Shown here in pieces: positions 4,778 to 19,987 of a stretch of DNA of 47,736 nucleotides. Positions within the stretch are counted from its first letter, which is position 1; the number at the start of each line of letters is the position of its first letter. Under the pieces are notes generated by a model that saw only the letters and a program-made list of their open reading frames with translations, was not told where the DNA came from and ran no database searches. The DNA is from a virus (taxonomy: Duplodnaviria > Heunggongvirae > Uroviricota > Caudoviricetes): the IMG/VR virus record IMGVR_UViG_2778261460_000004; one strand, 5' to 3'. The position numbers and the translations under genes were made by a program.

Positions 4778-4836
4778 AAAAAGGGCGGCAGAGCAGTCAC
4801 GAAGTAAAACTGATACCGCCAAACGTCACCAGAAAA
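4778..4836 (-). ncRNA. dicF: DicF small regulatory RNA (ftsZ-targeting sRNA) with 3' terminator-like hairpin
   Basis: Reverse complement of 4784-4836 reads TTTTCTGGTGACGTTTGGCGGTATCAGTTTTACTTCGTGACTGCTCTGCCGCCC followed by a T-run, matching the recalled 53-nt DicF with about 1 mismatch; position between ydfA-type genes and dicB matches the known dicB operon. Confidence 0.75.
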
Positions 4837-7394: not shown

Positions 7395-7465
7395 CTCGCA
7401 ATATTCATACCGGATCACTTCCGGCAATTTGTGAGTAAAAAGATTCGGTATCAAAAGAGGTGAGT

Positions 7466-8536
7466 ATGGCTAACGCCTGGCTCAGATTATGGCATGACAT
7501 GCCAAATGACCCTAAGTGGCGAACAATTGCCAGGGTGTCAGGGCAGCCAATTGCAACAGTGATGGCAGTGTATATCCACCTCCTGGTGAGCGCGTCACGA
7601 AATGTCACGCGAGGTCACATTGATGTCACGACAGAAGATTTGGCAAGTGCGCTCGACGTGACAGAAGAGGTAATTGATTCAATTTTGCAGACGATGCAGG
7701 GGCGGGTACTTGATGGTGATTTAATCACTGGATGGGAAAAACGCCAGGTGCTTAAAGAGGACAACGGCAATATTTCGCAAACCGCAAAATCTCCTGCAGA
7801 GCGCAAGAGGGCGCAGCGAGAGAGGGAAAGAAAGCGGGAACAAAATGGCGATTGTCACGGCGCGTCACGAAATGTCACGCACATGTCACGACGAGTCACG
7901 ACAGATAAAGATACAGATAAAGATACAGATCAAGAAGATCAAAACACTATGGTCCATGGCGTAAAAAACGCCACGAACCAGGCAGGGGATGTTCAGACCG
8001 TCAATCTTGGTCAGCCAGCAGGCACGACACCGGAAGCCGATTCAGCGTATGCGCTGAAAGCCGATTCGGGCGCTGTGCAGCAGGTGATGACCGCAAGGGC
8101 GGAGCAATCACACCAACTGCAGCAGTCTGAAGCCGATTCCGCCATTCAGCGGGAAGCCGATCGGGTAGTCCCGGAAAACACCGGGCAGTCTGTGGGACGA
8201 GTGGATTATCCGGATGTGTTCGAACAGGTCTGGCGGGAGTACCCGTTGCGTGCTGGGGCAAACCCGAAGAAATCCGCTTTCAGTGCCTGGAAGGCCAGAT
8301 TACGCGAGGGGGTGCCACCAGAGGCCATGCTGGATGGCGTGAGGCGTTACGCAAGATACTTGGCGGCTACCGGGAAAACGGGAACGGAATTTGTTCAGCG
8401 AGCGACGACGTTTTTTGGACCGGACCGGAATTTTGAGAACCCCTGGTTGCTCCCGGTAAGCGGCACGAACAACCAGCGTTGTGTGAATCATATTTCTGAA
8501 CCGGATAACGAAATTCCGCCGGGCTTCAGGGGGTAA
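7466..8536 (+). CDS. Replication initiation protein (O-like / YdaU-like) containing the origin iterons
   Basis: About 356 aa from ATG at 7466 (track ORF from GTG 7460); SD AAAGAGGTGAG; two GTCACG iteron clusters lie inside the coding sequence and encode repeated peptides SASRNVTRGHIDVTT / GASRNVTHMSRRVTT. Confidence 0.6.
   Translation: MANAWLRLWHDMPNDPKWRTIARVSGQPIATVMAVYIHLLVSASRNVTRGHIDVTTEDLASALDVTEEVIDSILQTMQGRVLDGDLITGWEKRQVLKEDNGNISQTAKSPAERKRAQRERERKREQNGDCHGASRNVTHMSRRVTTDKDTDKDTDQEDQNTMVHGVKNATNQAGDVQTVNLGQPAGTTPEADSAYALKADSGAVQQVMTARAEQSHQLQQSEADSAIQREADRVVPENTGQSVGRVDYPDVFEQVWREYPLRAGANPKKSAFSAWKARLREGVPPEAMLDGVRRYARYLAATGKTGTEFVQRATTFFGPDRNFENPWLLPVSGTNNQRCVNHISEPDNEIPPGFRG
7588..7637. 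repeat. Iteron cluster 1 (GTCACG-type repeats), candidate ori element
   Basis: gagcgcgtcacgaaatgtcacgcgaggtcacattgatgtcacgacag: four or five (C/T)GTCAC(G/A) copies. Confidence 0.5.
7851..7945. repeat. Iteron cluster 2 plus GATAAAGATACA tandem repeat, candidate ori element
   Basis: attgtcacggcgcgtcacgaaatgtcacgcacatgtcacgacgagtcacgacag followed by gataaagatacagataaagatacagatcaagaagatcaaaac; 21-mer GCGCGTCACGAAATGTCACGC shared with cluster 1. Confidence 0.5.
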
Positions 8537-8576: not shown

Positions 8577-8999
8577 GTGGCAAAAGTTTTTACACAAGAA
8601 GAGCGGGAAAAAATTAAAGGGCAGGTTCTTGAACTCGTACGCCAGAGTGGGCGCGAGACGTTACGACAACTGGAAGCTAAAACTGGGGCAACAAGATATC
8701 TGATGAGCGTTCTGGCCAGAGAGCTGGTTGCCAGTGGCGATGTATACAATTCTGGCTACGGGTTATTCCCGTCTGAACAGGCTCGGAAAGACTGGCAAAA
8801 TGCCCGCAAAAAATTATCGAGGGCAAAGCTGAAGAAACCGGTTGTGGTTGATCCGGACCTTATCTGGTCATTACCTGACGGAGAAATACGTCGCTACGAC
8901 AGTCGCCTAAACATAATCTGTCGCGAGTGCCGGAAGAGCGAAGTTATGCAGCGCATATTGTCGTTTTATCAGGGGGATGTTCGGTATTTATTGAAGTGA
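8577..8999 (+). CDS. Hypothetical 140-aa protein downstream of replication initiator
   Basis: GTG/ATG start after SD-like GGAGGG; C-terminal CRECRK motif; no helicase-loader (P/DnaC) features recognised. Confidence 0.4.
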   Translation: MAKVFTQEEREKIKGQVLELVRQSGRETLRQLEAKTGATRYLMSVLARELVASGDVYNSGYGLFPSEQARKDWQNARKKLSRAKLKKPVVVDPDLIWSLPDGEIRRYDSRLNIICRECRKSEVMQRILSFYQGDVRYLLK

Positions 9000-9072
9000 C
9001 GAGATTAAAGTGCATTAGTTCAGATGCAAATTGACATTTTGTGGCACAGGGTAGAGCTAGCGTGGTTGTCCG

Positions 9073-9092
9073 CTTTGTGCCAAGAGCAGACG
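9073..9092. repeat. Direct repeat copy 1 flanking transporter/DUF2254 module
   Basis: CTTTGTGCCAAGAGCAGACG; near-identical 20-mer at 12744-12763. Confidence 0.5.
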
Positions 9093-9333
9093 CTGGTAAT
9101 TCGTGCCTAATATACTTCACTTAACTTATATCCCAGCTTTGATACAGATCATACAAATTAAATGCCCCAGTAATTGGCAGGCTGAGTAACTTAAAACTCC
9201 TTAGAATATAGGATGATTTGTATCGGCACTCATTCCACCATGCATTCCGATTAATCCCGCATAGCCAGTTGAACTTTGCTACTCTGTGAGAGGTAGTACC
9301 TTCTATCCAGTGCGGATTTAATTAATGGAATAA

Positions 9334-11337
9334 ATGATTATGAGTGAAAATGATACAACCCCAAAGAAGTCTACAAGCCAGATTAACAAAGCGGTATTCT
9401 TTACATCTGCTTTGCTAATTTTCCTTCTTGTCGCCTTTGCCGCCGTATTCCCGGATGTCGCCGACAAAAATTTTAAACTACTTCAGCAACAAATCTTCAC
9501 GAATGCCAGCTGGTTCTACATACTTGCTGTGGCCCTGATTTTACTGAGCGTCACGTTCCTTGGACTCTCACGTTACGGTGATATAAAGCTGGGCCCAGAC
9601 CATGCGCAGCCTGATTTCAGCTACCACTCCTGGTTCGCGATGCTTTTTTCGGCAGGGATGGGGATCGGCCTGATGTTCTTTGGCGTTGCCGAACCTGTGA
9701 TGCATTATCTTTCGCCACCTGTCGGCACTCCAGAGACCGTTGCGGCAGCGAAGGAAGCCATGCGCCTGACGTTCTTCCACTGGGGTCTGCACGCATGGGC
9801 AATTTATGCCATCGTGGCGCTGATTCTGGCCTTTTTCAGTTACCGTCACGGTCTGCCTTTAACGCTGCGTTCTGCGCTCTATCCCATTATCGGCGATCGC
9901 ATTTACGGGCCTATAGGCCACGCGGTTGATATCTTCGCCGTGATAGGCACTGTCTTTGGCGTTGCAACATCGCTGGGTTACGGTGTATTGCAGGTGAATG
10001 CCGGTTTGAACCATCTTTTCGGCGTGCCCATCAATGAAACGGTACAGGTCATTTTGATCGTGGTCATCACGGGGTTAGCGACGATTTCGGTGGTGTCCGG
10101 CCTGGACAAGGGAATACGCATCCTGTCTGAGCTTAATCTGGGCCTGGCGGTGTTGCTCCTGGCGCTGGTCTTGTGCCTGGGTCCCACTGTGCTTCTGCTG
10201 AAGTCATTTGTGGAAAATACGGGTGGTTATCTGTCGGAACTGGTGAGTAAAACGTTCAACCTTTACGCGTATGAACCCAAGTCGAGCAACTGGCTGGGGG
10301 GCTGGACATTATTATACTGGGGATGGTGGCTTTCATGGTCGCCGTTTGTAGGTATGTTCATTGCACGCGTTTCCCGCGGCAGGACAATTCGTGAGTTCGT
10401 GACTGGCGTGTTGTTTGTTCCCGCCGGCTTTACGCTCATGTGGATGACGGTGTTTGGAAACAGCGCCATCTATCTCATCATGAACCAGGGCGCCACTGAC
10501 CTCGCCAATACCGTTCAGCAGGATGTTGCGCTTGCCCTGTTTAATTTCCTGGAGCATTTCCCGTTCTCTTCCGTGCTGTCATTCATTGCAATGGCGATGG
10601 TCATCGTCTTCTTTGTAACGTCTGCTGATTCGGGGGCAATGGTTGTGGATACTCTGGCATCAGGTGGGGTGGCAAACACGCCCGTCTGGCAGCGAATTTT
10701 CTGGGCATCGCTCATGGGCGTTGTTGCTATTGCCCTGCTGATCGCAGGGGGGCTGAGTGCGTTGCAAACCGTAACGATAGCGAGTGCATTGCCCTTCTCA
10801 GTTATCTTATTAATATCCATATACGGACTGTTAAAAGCCCTGCGTCGGGATTTGACCAAGCGTGAAAGCCTTAGCATGGCGACTATTGCTCCTACGGCTG
10901 CACGTAACCCAATTCCCTGGCAGAGAAGGTTACGCAATATCGCGTATTTGCCGAAGCGCTCTCTTGTGAAACGTTTTATGGACGACATTATCCAACCCGC
11001 CATGACGCTGGTTCAGGAGGAACTTAACAAGCAGGGAACGATAAGCCACATCAGTGACGCCGCCGAGGATCGTATTCGCCTTGAAGTCGATTTGGGCAAC
11101 GAGCTGAATTATATATATGAAGTGAGGCTTCGCGGGTATAACTCACCGACCTTCGCGCTCGCTGCGCTGGATAATGATGAGCAGCAGAGTGAACAACATC
11201 GATATTATCGCGCTGAAGTCTATCTCAAAGAGGGCGGCCAAAATTATGATGTAATGGGCTGGAATCAGGAACAGCTGATTAATGACATACTGGACCAGTA
11301 CGAAAAACACCTGCACTTCCTGCATCTGGTTCGTTAA
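9334..11337 (+). CDS. BCCT-family transporter (BetT-like choline/glycine betaine transporter)
   Basis: 667 aa; multiple TM segments; BCCT signature WTLLYWGWWLSWSPFVGMFIARVSRGRTIREF; long cytoplasmic C-terminal extension as in BetT. Confidence 0.85.
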   Translation: MIMSENDTTPKKSTSQINKAVFFTSALLIFLLVAFAAVFPDVADKNFKLLQQQIFTNASWFYILAVALILLSVTFLGLSRYGDIKLGPDHAQPDFSYHSWFAMLFSAGMGIGLMFFGVAEPVMHYLSPPVGTPETVAAAKEAMRLTFFHWGLHAWAIYAIVALILAFFSYRHGLPLTLRSALYPIIGDRIYGPIGHAVDIFAVIGTVFGVATSLGYGVLQVNAGLNHLFGVPINETVQVILIVVITGLATISVVSGLDKGIRILSELNLGLAVLLLALVLCLGPTVLLLKSFVENTGGYLSELVSKTFNLYAYEPKSSNWLGGWTLLYWGWWLSWSPFVGMFIARVSRGRTIREFVTGVLFVPAGFTLMWMTVFGNSAIYLIMNQGATDLANTVQQDVALALFNFLEHFPFSSVLSFIAMAMVIVFFVTSADSGAMVVDTLASGGVANTPVWQRIFWASLMGVVAIALLIAGGLSALQTVTIASALPFSVILLISIYGLLKALRRDLTKRESLSMATIAPTAARNPIPWQRRLRNIAYLPKRSLVKRFMDDIIQPAMTLVQEELNKQGTISHISDAAEDRIRLEVDLGNELNYIYEVRLRGYNSPTFALAALDNDEQQSEQHRYYRAEVYLKEGGQNYDVMGWNQEQLINDILDQYEKHLHFLHLVR

Positions 11338-11385
11338 CAGCAACATGCCGCCACAGAGGCGGCATTTATTTATCCCGGCTGCAAT

Positions 11386-12678
11386 ATGAGGGAATGCAGA
11401 ATGATTTCACGCTGGAAATGGATGCTGAAGCAGACATTTAAAAAACTATGGTTCAGGGCAACGTTATTCGCAATTGTCGCAATAATAACGGCCCTTTTAT
11501 CAATTCTTTTTAAATCAATGATACCTGAGTCGGTTTCCGTGAAGGTTGGTGCGGAAGCAGTCGATAACATTCTGAACATACTGGCATCGAGTATGCTGGC
11601 CGTGACCACATTTTCGCTGAGCATCATGGTCACAGCCTACGGTTCAGCCACTACTAATGTGACTCCCAGAGCTACTCGTTTAGTTGTTGAAGACGTCACC
11701 ACACAAAATGTACTGGCCACCTTCATCGGTTCTTTTCTCTTCAGTCTGGTAGGGATTATTGCCCTCAATATGGGAGCTTATGGAGAAAGGGGGAGAGTCA
11801 TTTTATTCATTGTAACACTGGTTGTCATTGCCTTAATCCTCATCACATTGCTTCGCTGGATACAGCATTTGACCTCTCTGGGGAGGGTTGGTGAGACAAC
11901 GGCAAAAGTAGAACAGGCGGCCATCGAAACATTTATTGCGAGAGCAAGAAATCCCTGTCTCGGCGGATATCCATGGCTTGAGAACAATGAACAGCCGAAA
12001 GGAACGGTTGCAGTTTATCCGAAAAAGATTGGCTATGTTGAATATGTTGATATGGTGAAACTCAGCAAGCTGCTGACCAATGATCCCCGTCATGTATACC
12101 TCGTGGCGCAGCCGGGCAGTTTCATACATCCGTCCACGCCAGTTTTGTACCTGAGTCAGGGCCAGGAGTCATCAATCAGCACCGATTTACTTGAGACGAT
12201 TATTGTCTCGGATGTACGTTCATTTGCTCAGGACCCCCGATTTTGTCTTAGCGTCATGGCCGAAATAGCCTGCCGAGCCCTTTCCCCCGCAGTGAACGAT
12301 CCTGGAACCGCCATTGATGTCATTGGCAGAGGTGTACGTATACTTTCCGCTTACGCGCAGAATAAATCTGATGAAATAGAAGTGAAATATCCTTCTGTAC
12401 ATGTTGCACCACTTCAGAATAACGATCTACTTGAAGACTTTTTCTCACCTGTTGCGCGCGATGGTGCCAGTATGAGGGAAATTCAGATAAGGGTACTTAA
12501 AGGACTGTCGATGCTGAGTAAGGGTTGGCCTGGAATTTTTGCTGAAGCCGCACAAACCCTAGCATTTGAAACATTAGAGCATGCTACTCGTGCTGACCAT
12601 ATAGATTCTGACAGATATCTAATAAAATCAATTTATTATAATTTATTTAGTGGCGAAGATTCTAATAAAAAACCATAG
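11386..12678 (+). CDS. Membrane protein with N-terminal TM helices and large soluble domain (DUF2254-like)
   Basis: 430 aa; about 4-5 hydrophobic helices in first 170 aa; about 50 bp downstream of the BCCT gene on same strand. Family assignment from memory, moderate. Confidence 0.55.
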   Translation: MRECRMISRWKWMLKQTFKKLWFRATLFAIVAIITALLSILFKSMIPESVSVKVGAEAVDNILNILASSMLAVTTFSLSIMVTAYGSATTNVTPRATRLVVEDVTTQNVLATFIGSFLFSLVGIIALNMGAYGERGRVILFIVTLVVIALILITLLRWIQHLTSLGRVGETTAKVEQAAIETFIARARNPCLGGYPWLENNEQPKGTVAVYPKKIGYVEYVDMVKLSKLLTNDPRHVYLVAQPGSFIHPSTPVLYLSQGQESSISTDLLETIIVSDVRSFAQDPRFCLSVMAEIACRALSPAVNDPGTAIDVIGRGVRILSAYAQNKSDEIEVKYPSVHVAPLQNNDLLEDFFSPVARDGASMREIQIRVLKGLSMLSKGWPGIFAEAAQTLAFETLEHATRADHIDSDRYLIKSIYYNLFSGEDSNKKP

Positions 12679-12743
12679 TTGCGGAGCAAGCGATACGGTT
12701 GTTGGCAAGTCAAGGGCAAAGCATTCGCGTGAGAGTGGGCGTC

Positions 12744-12763
12744 TGCTTTGTGCCAAAAGCTGA
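12744..12763. repeat. Direct repeat copy 2 flanking transporter/DUF2254 module
   Basis: CTTTGTGCCAAAAGCTGACG (18/20 identical to 9073-9092). Confidence 0.5.
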
Positions 12764-12850
12764 CGTTTGTGGTTCTTGAAACATATCTTATAATGCGGCC
12801 AGTTTTTGTTGACCACTGCACTCCTTAATTATGTATGTAGAAGATAAATA

Positions 12851-13189
12851 ATGAAAAGACTGCTGATATTGATCCTTCTGGGTTTTTCCTGTGTATCACA
12901 AGCCAAGTCAGTAATGCGTTGTGAGGGCGACAAAGCGGTTGTCTTCGACAAAGAACGGGCAACTATTGATTATGAGGGGCGTGTTTTTGAGAATGCATAC
13001 CAGAGAACGTTGAGTGGGATGGTCATAATCGCTGGCACTGACGATCTAGGCTATGAAGGTGAATTGTTGTTTTCGAAAGTCAAAGGCGTTGGCGCATGGA
13101 GCTTCAATATCAGCGAAAGCGAGGAAATGTCCCCTCCAGAAGCTAAGTCACGGAAAACGATTTTATCTATAGATTGCACTCCGCAGTAG
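12851..13189 (+). CDS. Small secreted/periplasmic protein (signal peptide)
   Basis: 112 aa; N-terminal MKRLLILILLGFSCVSQA looks like a Sec signal peptide; two Cys in mature part; AT-rich gene. Confidence 0.5.
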   Translation: MKRLLILILLGFSCVSQAKSVMRCEGDKAVVFDKERATIDYEGRVFENAYQRTLSGMVIIAGTDDLGYEGELLFSKVKGVGAWSFNISESEEMSPPEAKSRKTILSIDCTPQ

Positions 13190-13473
13190 GATGGAAGAAG
13201 CGGGTGTTACTATTGAAAAACCACATGTTCGCTCCTCGCTCAAAGCTGCCTGTCATGCTTGCTTAAAAAACAGGCTTAACGTAGGATATTTTCCGTTTTC
13301 CAAGCGGACCCCATAAGTGGCGCATTAGGCACAAGTGGTTGAGGGGATGGGAAGCCATAACGGAAAATGATTTTGACAGTGACAACGCAGCTTTCAGTTA
13401 TGCATATGACCACTTTTTAAAAAGTGATTTCTCAAAAAATAGAAATAAATAACAAATTTTCTAATGGTGTCAA

Positions 13474-14532
13474 ATGGAAAGTATCGCGCTATACAACTGG
13501 GCTACAAGTGTTTTGTCTTCTATTACAGAAGATTTGAATGAACATTACTATAAAGAAATTAATGGCAGTCTCGCTTTACAATTTGAAACTACAGATATTG
13601 TGAACGCTAGAGCTTTAGTTTACTCAGAGCGTGATGAACCACCAAGGCATGCTATATCAATCACATATAAATTAATCCGATCATTATATGATGATGCTGC
13701 TGCTTTTGTAGATTATGTTCACTCTGGTAAAGATGATGAAGTTTATGATATGTGGTTTAATGGGCAAACCAACTTTAGCACTTTAAGAAATGAGTGGGAT
13801 AAAACTAATTTCACTAAAAACATTTTTCTAGCAGGTTTGACATGGGTTTTTTTTCATGAGTTAGGACACTTAACTCAGGGCCATTTATTTATAAGGAACA
13901 GGTATAGTTCCGAAATTAATGTAATGTCTGAAATTCACTTAAATAATTTATCATCAGACAATAACGATGCATCTGCCATTTGGCACGCAACGGAACTTGC
14001 AGCCGATTATTTTTCCACATACATGTGTGTAATAGAAATTGTTCGACAACTTGCCATTAATGAAGATTGCGAATTGGCAATTTGCTTTTTGACATGTGGT
14101 ATATCATTAATGTTACATCGTTTTCAAGGCGAAAAACTTTATGAGGTTCAAACAGAACCAGTTGGTACACATCCTAGGCCATTCGTAAGGCTTGAAATGA
14201 TCGTGCCTTTAATTTTTGAAATACTTTCTATTCCAAACACAGATCAACGTCGTAGTTATGTGCTTGCAGGTGGTGAATCGGCCAACAGGGTTGGACTTTT
14301 CTGGATAAGAAAGACTGGAATAATGGAGGGTATTCCTGAACATTATCTTATCGAAGGTACATTGAACCGGCCTGGAGTTGTTGAGTATTTGAGGCATATC
14401 ATTTTTATTTGGGATAGCATTTCATCTGAAATCTCTGAGATGTTCACTTTTGGCACAAAAAAAATGCTTCTTAACTTCACGAATGTACTTCGGACTACAC
14501 CGGATTTGAATGATGATACACAGGAAAAATAA
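13474..14532 (+). CDS. Putative cytoplasmic zinc metallopeptidase-like protein (HExxH motif)
   Basis: 352 aa; motif VFFHELGHLTQGH at residues 126-138 (HExxH plus downstream His); no signal peptide; AT-rich, atypical composition for the host. Confidence 0.5.
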   Translation: MESIALYNWATSVLSSITEDLNEHYYKEINGSLALQFETTDIVNARALVYSERDEPPRHAISITYKLIRSLYDDAAAFVDYVHSGKDDEVYDMWFNGQTNFSTLRNEWDKTNFTKNIFLAGLTWVFFHELGHLTQGHLFIRNRYSSEINVMSEIHLNNLSSDNNDASAIWHATELAADYFSTYMCVIEIVRQLAINEDCELAICFLTCGISLMLHRFQGEKLYEVQTEPVGTHPRPFVRLEMIVPLIFEILSIPNTDQRRSYVLAGGESANRVGLFWIRKTGIMEGIPEHYLIEGTLNRPGVVEYLRHIIFIWDSISSEISEMFTFGTKKMLLNFTNVLRTTPDLNDDTQEK

Positions 14533-15044
14533 TGCTGATCAGTGTTAATTAACAATTCGCATAATATAGGGGGGCTGTACCGGAACCGCCAGAAATTTCT
14601 GGCGCAGTGAATTAGTCGAATTTTGAAGCATGTTTGGCATGTGCTGACGTGTACGTTTATGGTGCCGTGAGTGAGAATTTATCCGTACCAGCTATGTGAG
14701 ACGCTGCGGTCAGTGATTTTTCGTTCCAAACGGCCATTTCTTTACTGTCCGGTTGACGGCGGTCTTACGTACAGGCAGACAACCGCAAACATTATGCGTC
14801 ACGGAAATTTCTGCGGTTCTGGCGTACAACCCCAAATTAACGTCCGCTCATCGCTCAAAGCGGACTAGAAGGTTAGCTTGCGTCGGACTTGGCGTATTTA
14901 AAGAAGTACTGGTGGTGACTGGTTGTTGTGTTCCATTTCTACAGAACAAAATCACAGAAACTATACCCAATAGTTGTATCTCATCAATGATGAGACAGCC
15001 TCATATTTATCAGGACTGGTGTACGTCCAATACAGGAGGTTGTC

Positions 15045-15134: not shown

Positions 15135-15345
15135 TTTTATATTGGCGAGGTAACGGGAGTTAAGTAGAATGGCTGCGGGTGCTTGAGGCTATCTGTCTCA
15201 GGCATGAACACCAAAGGCAGATAGAGAAAAGCCCCAGTTAACATTACGCGTCCTGCAAGACGCTTAACATTAATCTGAGGCTCAATCTATGAACGGCAAA
15301 TCTAGGTTAGCCTCTTACGTGCCGAAAGGCAAGGAGAAGCAGGCT

Positions 15346-15501
15346 ATGAAGCAGCAAAAGGCGATGTTAATCGCCCTGATCGTCATCTGTTTAACCGTCA
15401 TAGTGACGGCACTGGTAACGAGGAAAGACCTCTGCGAGGTACGAATCCGAACCGGCCAGACGGAGGTCGCTGTCTTCACAGCTTACGAACCTGAGGAGTA
15501 A
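15346..15501 (+). CDS. hokD: Hok-family type I toxin HokD (RelF)
   Basis: 51-aa product MKQQKAMLIALIVICLTVIVTALVTRKDLCEVRIRTGQTEVAVFTAYEPEE matches recalled HokD; in-frame upstream extension (from 15289) may correspond to a mok-like frame; antisense Sok-like RNA expected upstream but not delimited. Confidence 0.85.
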   Translation: MKQQKAMLIALIVICLTVIVTALVTRKDLCEVRIRTGQTEVAVFTAYEPEE

Positions 15502-19677: not shown

Positions 19678-19753
19678 GGCCCTTTAGCTCAGTGGTGAGA
19701 GCGAGCGACTCATAATCGCCAGGTCGCTGGTTCAAATCCAGCAAGGGCCACCA
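19678..19753 (+). tRNA. tRNA-Ile2-like (anticodon CAU; ileX/ileZ-like), could formally be Met
   Basis: 76 nt GGCCCTTTAGCTCAGTGG...CTCATAA anticodon loop...TTCAAATCC...AAGGGCCACCA; one mismatch in anticodon stem. Confidence 0.8.
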
Positions 19754-19754
19754 A

Positions 19755-19831
19755 TCGCCACTAGCTCATCAGGAAAGAGCGTCAACCCTTTAAGTTGAGT
19801 GTGCGAGGTTCGAGTCCCCGGTGGCGGTCCA
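19755..19831 (+). tRNA. tRNA-like gene, atypical (anticodon loop CCUUUAA, possibly Lys-UUU or a degenerate Arg tRNA)
   Basis: Acceptor stem TCGCCAC/GTGGCGG, T-loop TTCGAGT, 3' CCA present; C at position 33 and one T-stem mismatch make the assignment uncertain. Confidence 0.5.
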
Positions 19832-19833
19832 GT

Positions 19834-19909
<76 letters not shown>

Positions 19910-19912
19910 TAT

Positions 19913-19987
<75 letters not shown>

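Follow-up and report, generated by a model that had tools for sequence, protein, structure and literature searches.

The stretch of DNA analysed here, which we call the window, comprises the 47,736 nucleotides of the IMG/VR virus record IMGVR_UViG_2778261460_000004 (Caudoviricetes). It is a Qin/Tritos-type lambdoid prophage with an integrase (23-1318), a RecE-like exonuclease, DicB, DicF, DUF968 and a tRNA cluster. Between its DUF977 gene (lygF) and a hok/sok module, where hokD is annotated in relatives, the prophage has a cargo hotspot, which three short palindromic sites split into two cassettes: cassette A carries a BCCT (BetT-like) transporter and a DUF2254 membrane protein, and cassette B carries two open reading frames (ORFs). 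Here we describe these sites, which belong to a widespread family with two types, L and R, follow them through phages, chromosomes and plasmids, and weigh the ways in which the cargo bounded by them could be exchanged.

Results

Sites and cassettes of the window

A sequence-only reading of the window had proposed that a BCCT transporter and a large membrane protein form a module bounded by near-identical 20-bp direct repeats. Both genes are confirmed by profile matches (Table 1), and the proposed contrast in GC content is also found: 0.51-0.55 over the BCCT gene versus 0.33-0.39 over 13400-14400. An intrinsic terminator lies between the two genes of cassette A, thus they may be separate transcription units. 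In cassette B, ORF352 gives only a weak Lit-like match (PADLOC Lit, E=1.5e-5).

The repeats are real as well. The sequence CTTTGTGCCAAGAGCAGACG lies at 9073-9092, as had been reported, and its sole other match in the window with up to 3 mismatches is CTTTGTGCCAAAAGCTGACG, with 2 mismatches, at 12746-12765, that is 2 nt away from the position 12744-12763 given before; dinucleotide-preserving shuffles of the window yielded no match in 100 of 100 cases. The similarity between the two places is longer than 20 bp and extends over 47 nt with 77% identity (9059-9105 versus 12732-12778). Three points had escaped the sequence-only reading: both repeats are the core of a 24-bp imperfect palindrome, a third, sister site is present in the window, and the right-hand repeat doubles as the left boundary of cassette B. 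In the L type the 9-bp arms GTCyGCTTT/ArAGCnGAC enclose a central, invariant and asymmetric 6-nt spacer, GTGCCA; the R type has the spacer TCGCTC. A base-by-base comparison of L with the reverse complement of R gives about 20 equal positions out of 24.

The middle site, H2, is a hybrid: its 5' arm goes with cassette A and its 3' arm with cassette B, and this 3' arm, AAAGCTGAC, is identical in a copy of cassette B from a P2-like prophage. Part of the site, TGGCACAGGG, recurs in inverted form at 9042-9051 within the outer flank of the left site, and in an extended RNA fold a stretch of this flank is paired with CTTTGTGCCA. An apparent inverted third copy at 14446-14460 inside ORF352 consists of the loop core without stems and was taken as chance.

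Table 1. Positions of the sites, the cassettes and the neighbouring genes in the window.
Feature	Position	Strand	Description
Replisome organizer	7460-8536		
DUF977 (lygF) gene	8577-8999	+	PF06163, E=2e-28; DUF977/LygF in relatives; last backbone gene before the hotspot
Outer flank of the left site	9000-9067	+	About 60 nt homologous between lambdoid and P2 backbones (alignment)
L site H1	9068-9091	+	GTCCGCTTT-GTGCCA-AGAGCAGAC; holds the left repeat; matches to phages end here
Cassette A	9092-12740	+	BCCT/BetT-like transporter, terminator, DUF2254 membrane protein
BCCT transporter	9334-11337	+	PF02028, E=7e-199, 661.7 bits; NCBIfam BetT subfamily NF007399, 752 bits (cutoff 695); full-length match
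Intrinsic terminator	11345-11365		Canonical, bidirectional; ATGCCGCCACAGAGGCGGCAT, then a T-run; between the BCCT and DUF2254 genes
DUF2254 membrane protein	11386-12678	+	PF10011, E=2e-92
L site H2	12741-12764	+	GTCTGCTTT-GTGCCA-AAAGCTGAC; holds the right repeat
Cassette B	12765-14841	+	ORF112 (12851-13189), AT-rich ORF352 (13474-14532)
R site H3	14842-14865	+	GTCCGCTCA-TCGCTC-AAAGCGGAC; right end of the cassette array
sok RNA and hok/mok ORF	15177-15351 (sok), 15289-15501 (hok/mok)	+	Rfam RF01794, 110 bits; first backbone module after the hotspot

Breakpoints fall on the sites

Homology between the window and other genomes starts and stops at the three sites. Cassette A is present with 99.9% identity in 321 complete E. 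coli genomes and the match ends at 12764, the right edge of H2; in relatives lacking the window's cargo (such as phages Tritos and Evi) it ends at about 9091, the right edge of H1. The segment 12741-14866 recurs with 99.3-99.6% identity in other E. coli genomes, and a third block of homology starts at about 14840. The interval between DUF977 and hok is filled by a 445-aa gene in phage Tritos, by a regulator and an acetyltransferase in phage Evi, and in many Rac- and Qin-type prophages by BCCT-DUF2254 followed by LysR/ChaC/MFS genes. The module is not at a fixed chromosomal locus: it lies within Rac-/Qin-type prophages, always directly after DUF977. The combination of A and B seen in the window occurs in no complete genome that was searched.

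Cassette B has a second home. In strain KE55, the one of these genomes that was examined, a P2-like prophage carries it at the Z/fun hotspot, which lies between the genes for tail fiber assembly and tail sheath. This copy has the same L and R and is 99.6% identical to the window, and the identity reaches exactly to the outer bases of the two sites. As for the BCCT cassette, only its first 163 nt were found in a P2 backbone, beside a contig end. In several E. coli genomes (for example NZ_CM184335.1, NZ_AP038228.1 and NZ_CP100883.1) cassette A is interrupted by IS100, ISVsa5 or IS903B, and some of these records have DUF2254 annotated as two fragments.

A pattern scan of viral contigs gave more than 120 stretches with sites, and marker mapping resolved two recurrent contexts, lygF-L-cargo-R-hok and P2 tfa-L-cargo-R-sheath, besides many further ones. 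Samples of 80 loci each, anchored on a protein and therefore free of bias from hairpin selection, were taken for P4 psu, P2 sheath and lambdoid lygF. L and/or R were found in 46 of the P2 sheath loci, in 58 of the lygF loci and in none of the P4 psu loci (893 kb); cassette A occupies 10 of the 80 lygF loci. The repeats do serve as module boundaries, as had been proposed, but they are not a private pair of this module and belong to a widespread family of sites.

Mapping of the crossover interval

The two arms of one site have different histories. The L site that follows lygF has the 5' arm GTCCGCTTT in 31 of 31 cases, next to 12 different downstream partners; after P2 tfa the 5' arm is mostly GTCCGCTCT (22 of 27, 19 partners), and after cassette A it is always GTCTGCTTT (9 of 9, 5 downstream partners). 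Likewise, the 3' arm of R is AAAGCGGAC in all 29 sites that precede the hok-side backbone and AAAGCAGAC in 22 of the 24 that precede the P2 sheath gene. Each of these L and R arms was met with between 5 and 19 different partners. When the same cassette is followed through different partners (8 cases for L and 8 for R), the outer arm tracks the partner and the inner arm tracks the cassette, with slight deviations in a few cases. This segregation of arms is reproduced in the protein-anchored sets, in which 4 L and 3 R cassette ends are common to P2 and lambdoid loci. Therefore, the exchange is placed at positions 9-16 of L and 9-21 of R, which are the spacer and its edges. Informative junctions at both ends of the cassettes share this central interval, and no bases are lost or gained in them.

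Under a model of uniform crossover the observed outcome has a probability of roughly 1e-3 to 1e-5, a figure that is indicative only, because identity between the sites also peaks in the crossover interval. The P2-type and lambdoid-type L sites that were compared share an identical contiguous stretch of just about 7 nt with the spacer at its centre, and such a length is too short for homologous recombination of the RecA or RecT type.

In a catalogue of 238 sites, conservation is strongest in the spacer. The stem varies at positions 4/21, 8/17 and 9/16, where no covariation was seen and the observed pairing equals the expectation under independence. Thus a core site recognised by a protein fits the data better than a hairpin selected for its structure. 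Selection on structure was rejected, as neither the phage copies nor the high-GC, mostly alphaproteobacterial, copies show covariation.

Grammar of the loci

The sites of one locus lie nearly all on the same strand. The order L...R was seen in 49 loci, and others read LRLR, LLR or similar; in 11 of 16 stacked cases the gap from R to the next L is exactly 18 nt, and arrays on plasmids follow the same grammar as phage loci. The cassettes measure 0.3-5.8 kb, hold 1-6 genes that may point either way, and almost every one is different. On the cassette side of enterobacterial sites AAC/GTT is conserved. Seen in this way, the BCCT/DUF2254 pair is ordinary cargo, one of dozens of exchangeable passengers, and no adaptation peculiar to this phage.

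About 20 of 72 listed cassettes have an inner terminal inverted repeat with the motif GGGGAGCAGGTCA, located 20-60 nt inside L and R; it reads ...GTGAATCAACGGGGAGCAGGTCA... beside L and as the reverse complement beside R, is not tied to any ORF or gene family, and is lacking in cassettes A and B. Several explanations for the movement of cassettes were rejected. No gene is common to the 72 distinct cassettes (most of them not annotated), which disposes of a mobility gene inside them. An element of the IS200/IS605 type fails as well, since the two arms of a hairpin go with different flanks and no ORF family recurs in these cassettes. Inversion of a cassette between L and R was dropped because the genes of about 445 aa in Tritos and in the strain designated H3 are unrelated and sites on opposite strands are rare.

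Occurrence in phages, chromosomes and plasmids

In phage P2 itself the gene fun(Z) is bracketed by the L site GTCCACTCTGTGCCAAAAGCGGAC and the degenerate R site TTCCGCTTCTCGCTCAAAGGAAAC. Neither is annotated in the P2 record, where the terminator of the V operon is placed away from the L site. The G-FI interval is empty in the P2-like Yersinia phage P37 (MT239398.1, 1739-1873): there we found no L, no R and no outer flanks of about 60 nt, only the terminator preceding the sheath gene. Either the P2 lineage gained the unit, sites included, by insertion, or P37 has undergone a clean deletion. The idea that an empty site keeps one hybrid hairpin was rejected, as this site, the only empty one of the P2 type that was found, has neither hairpin. 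In E. coli A20 an L and a truncated R enclose 230 nt of non-coding DNA.

The L hairpin is present in 2990 of 5426 E. coli genomes, at a median of 1 place and at most 6, and is absent from 45%; no match in the sampled rows has the hairpin itself annotated. In E. coli it is thus not a common chromosomal motif, being low in copy number and located in prophage hotspots. In the Qin prophage of K-12 MG1655 a degenerate L and a degenerate R with 4 mismatches each (1645981-1646004 and 1646972-1646995) bracket flxA; this L falls inside the ORF annotated as ydfV, and the unit runs opposite to the orientation of the phage backbone. The Rac prophage of K-12 has no site. For this reason bounding of its trkG gene by L/R was rejected, and the parallel that the sequence-only reading had drawn between trkG and the BCCT gene is reduced to a functional analogy.

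Among 72,556 plasmids the L hairpin was found on 2071, of which 1223 are from Klebsiella; the carriers are mainly conjugative plasmids of Klebsiella, Enterobacter and Pantoea. On the Klebsiella pneumoniae plasmid NZ_CP031818.1 the hairpin adjoins relBE-hok, a flank shared with K-12 Qin, and 3.7 kb away there is an R-18-L junction. The Pantoea agglomerans megaplasmid NZ_CP034475.1 (at about 126-145 kb) harbors an array of at least 9 cassettes, mostly of 1-2 genes, with R-(14-18 nt)-L junctions; its cargo includes an ars operon, SulP+USP, GNAT, DUF2268, LysE, SDR, GNAT, DUF6886 and others. Next to this array is an early region of lambdoid type (RecT, exonuclease, Gam, XRE, YdaS, replication protein P), with the sites located on the other strand.

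Soil Alphaproteobacteria (Hyphomicrobiales, Xanthobacteraceae, Pseudolabrys) and Nitrosomonadaceae have the same stem, GTCCGCTTT/AAAGCGGAC, in intergenic hairpins of high copy number, for which three loop classes occur: GTGCCA, GGGTCA and ACCCCCR. The copies often form ordered clusters resembling bacterial interspersed mosaic elements (BIMEs), with conserved linkers of about 21 nt; in soil Alphaproteobacteria up to 16 copies were counted per 8 kb. They are frequently located just 3' of genes for ABC-type substrate-binding proteins ending in ...ADEVIE, and the high-GC copies typically have AT on either side. An Rfam search of three hairpin loci of the alphaproteobacterial type gave no family match, and a search of the literature by sequence found no paper containing this hairpin string.

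Discussion

Proposed mechanism of cassette exchange

Our data demonstrate that the L and R sites exist, are specific and sit on breakpoints, that cassettes with L/R ends occur in unrelated backbones, and that the junctions always fall in the central, spacer-containing part of the site. From these comparisons of sequences we are inclined to regard L and R as 24-bp recombination sites that would bound exchangeable cargo cassettes in the lygF-hok hotspot and take part in conservative, site-specific exchange. Since the spacers differ, L would recombine with L and R with R. A double exchange (L x L and R x R) would swap a cassette between two co-resident elements, much as recombinase-mediated cassette exchange with heterospecific sites works, and a single L x L exchange would stack one cassette ahead of another and give the order L-A-L-B-R of the window. 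The enzyme would have to act in trans, because it is encoded neither in the cassettes nor beside them; it could come from the host or from a phage, or be a universal enzyme with the hairpin or cruciform as its substrate. A universal host enzyme of this kind would also explain the copies in Alpha- and Betaproteobacteria that resemble repetitive extragenic palindromic (REP) sequences. That the reaction is site-specific and that a factor acts in trans is what we infer from these alignments.

A wider proposal, which we put forward tentatively, is that L and R could be the sites of an integron-like cassette system serving the whole enterobacterial mobile gene pool by means of heterospecific 9-6-9 palindromes and a trans-acting factor. 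Members of this pool would be P2-like phages, lambdoid prophages of the Rac/Qin type and over 2000 plasmids, most of them conjugative.

Several observations speak against such site-specific exchange. No protein family recurs beside the sites in 51 unassigned viral loci and 67 high-GC loci, the annotation around the Pantoea array lists no integrase within 50 kb, and when the window was probed with the recombination proteins of K-12 Rac and Qin, the only integrase was the prophage's own (23-1318). The diagnostic positions bracket the crossover only to 9-16 in L or 9-21 in R; identity between the sites is highest in this very interval, and joining guided by microhomology would give the same map. 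The REP-like hairpin stands beside ordinary chromosomal genes of Alphaproteobacteria, and these copies point to a property more general than a dedicated phage recombination system. Additionally, no circular intermediate was seen and none of the 5426 E. coli genomes has a precise A-less allele. Simple insertion or excision of the module is therefore not demonstrated, while the suggestion of the sequence-only reading that recombination made the boundaries of the module holds, as identity stops at the sites.

Alternative explanations

One would argue that no dedicated enzyme is required. The palindromes would then be the only sequence shared between cargo loci, and the junctions would arise from recombination at short homology or microhomology. 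Possible routes are annealing of the RecET/Red type, switching of the template at a stalled hairpin without RecA, or a break at the centre of a cruciform followed by rejoining. This recombination without a dedicated enzyme, guided by microhomology or by the hairpin, is the main rival explanation, although we think it rather unlikely. Functions of the RecE/RecT type occur in lambdoid carriers (Rac-type relatives), a RecE-like gene is present in the window, RecT, exonuclease and Gam genes lie beside the Pantoea array, and no recombinase for the sites was found; the peak of identity at the spacer would guide joining to the same place. However, the P2-type loci examined have no RecT-type recombinase and the window has no RecT homologue. 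The perfect identity of the recombining sites compared, as stated above, is only about 7 nt, and all informative junctions nevertheless fall in one central interval without loss or gain of bases. Plain use of homology also does not predict a spacer conserved above the stem, nor L and R spacers that are distinct and kept in a fixed order.

A second explanation is that the sites are REP-like selfish or structural hairpins, acting as mRNA 3' stabilisers, insulators or targets of a transposase of the REP-associated tyrosine transposase (RAYT) type, and that their coincidence with cassette borders is secondary. Like REP/BIME repeats, which have a role as join-points of recombination, the sites are short imperfect palindromes. 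In soil Alphaproteobacteria and Nitrosomonadaceae they reach many copies per genome and lie between genes, near ordinary paralogues, in BIME-like mosaic clusters whose linkers are conserved; this unexpected result adds weight to the explanation. The hairpins are also stable enough to form (-10 to -14 kcal/mol). In E. coli, by contrast, the hairpin is low-copy (median 1 per genome) and confined to hotspots of mobile elements, and in the phage loci examined it is found at the borders of cargo hotspots. The two arms of one hairpin differ in history, which would not be seen if the hairpin moved as a unit; the stems do not covary, there is no 5' tetranucleotide of the GTAG type, and neither RAYT nor TnpA was seen near any site. 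Thus we consider this explanation improbable.

It is very improbable that the repeats are a shared regulatory element (operator, terminator or insulator) of the cargo genes, which the sequence-only reading had offered as an option: the sites are palindromic as operators are, and the minus strand of H3 weakly passes a loose terminator scan, but no promoter was called at the repeats, nor were H1 and H2 called as terminators, which need a G+C-rich stem directly before a T-run (so that the terminator reading was rejected), the canonical terminator of cassette A and the annotated terminator of the P2 V operon lie elsewhere, the flanked cargo is functionally unrelated and in either orientation, and an Rfam search of the window and of hairpin-rich loci gave no known RNA family at the hairpins, only one sub-threshold ar35 match where no hairpin is catalogued.

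Relation to known systems

According to the passage of Benler and Koonin (PMC8987985) that deals with fun(Z), inverted repeats flanking this gene in P2-like coliphages were described by Nilsson, Karlsson and Haggard-Ljungquist (2004; Mol Biol Evol 21:1) and linked to site-specific recombination, and exchange with bacterial genomes was already proposed for them. The repeats of 2004 are very probably the same sites as our L and R, and the P2 part of the story was thus very probably already described; the present finding is an extension of the fun(Z) repeats, not their first description. The P2 Z/fun locus resembles the window in that L and a degenerate R bracket fun(Z), P2-like prophages carry L...R around diverse cargo, and the same cargo appears in different contexts with breaks at the repeats (cassette B and 16 further cassette ends, each with at least 2 partners). 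It differs from the window, whose sites lie in the early region of a lambdoid prophage between DUF977 and hok, where two direct L sites bound a module and cassettes are stacked. As far as we could establish, the lygF-hok context, the bounding and stacking by direct L-L sites and the crossover map are new, and so are the contrast with P4, the plasmid arrays and the alphaproteobacterial copies. A search of the literature for the site sequence as a string found no relevant paper.

The integron attC system, including the clusters of attC sites lacking integron integrases (CALINs), resembles the L/R loci in its arrays of small cassettes separated by imperfect palindromes, as in Pantoea, and in a crossover inside the site. 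It is conceivable, as an idea only, that the R-linker-L composite folds as two stems with a central bubble. The differences are considerable. There is no IntI at the Pantoea array or in the window; the R''/R' boxes RYYYAAC...GTTRRRY are missing and only AAC...GTT is present; the crossover falls in the hairpin spacer, not at G|TT; and L/R cassettes are often multi-gene, in either orientation and with terminators of their own. When 10,705 phage genomes were screened with IntegronFinder and HattCI, only 17 CALINs were reported, and the main text of that study names no P2-like, Peduovirus or lambdoid phage.

The pdif (Xer) modules of Acinetobacter plasmids are another comparison: they too are discrete modules with short, roughly inverted sites, shuffled between replicons and without a recombinase inside. 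Sites of the dif/pdif kind are 28 bp long, with an 11-6-11 layout and distinct XerC and XerD arms. L/R sites, unlike these, are 9-6-9 palindromes with identical inverted arms (GTCCGCTTT/AAAGCGGAC), and they show no likeness to E. coli dif.

Very fast turnover of cargo and defence genes in hotspots of the P2 and P4 type has been reported (Rousset et al., 2022, PMC9122126; Moura de Sousa et al., 2026, PMC13586616), and the P2 G-FI hotspot, with its similarly rapid turnover, is one of the two phage loci studied here. P2 and P4 almost never exchange cargo, P2 shares cargo with other prophages and with plasmids, near-identical systems are common to unrelated mobile elements, and the recombination processes are still to be elucidated (PMC13586616). 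The main texts of PMC9122126 and PMC13586616 mention no hairpins, palindromes, stem-loops or terminators. The presence of L/R in P2 and lambdoid hotspots and their absence from P4 fit the reported rarity of exchange between P2 and P4. Thus the L/R sites are a concrete candidate for what stands behind the cargo exchange left open by the paper of 2026. If this is true, they would supply the missing mechanism by which defence and other cargo genes are swapped between phages and would explain why P4 satellites stay outside this exchange. A defined 24-bp site and a mapped crossover interval make such a mechanism open to simple experiments; if it is confirmed, cargo cassettes in prophages and plasmids might be delimited automatically, exchange networks might become predictable, and a natural tool for cassette exchange might be possible.

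Further features of the prophage

The gene of the replisome organizer contains a 33-nt direct repeat (8033-8065 and 8129-8161, 76% identity, 96 nt apart), which may, by analogy with the O genes of lambdoid phages, represent iterons of the origin. The small RNA DicF is encoded on the minus strand at 4783-4834 (75 bits), and DicF together with sok is typical of Qin-type prophages. A cluster of four tRNA genes (Met-CAT, Lys-TTT, Thr-TGT and Gly-TCC), only 310 nt long (19678-19987), follows the DUF968 region on its downstream side; in relatives the cluster consists of the Thr and Gly genes only.

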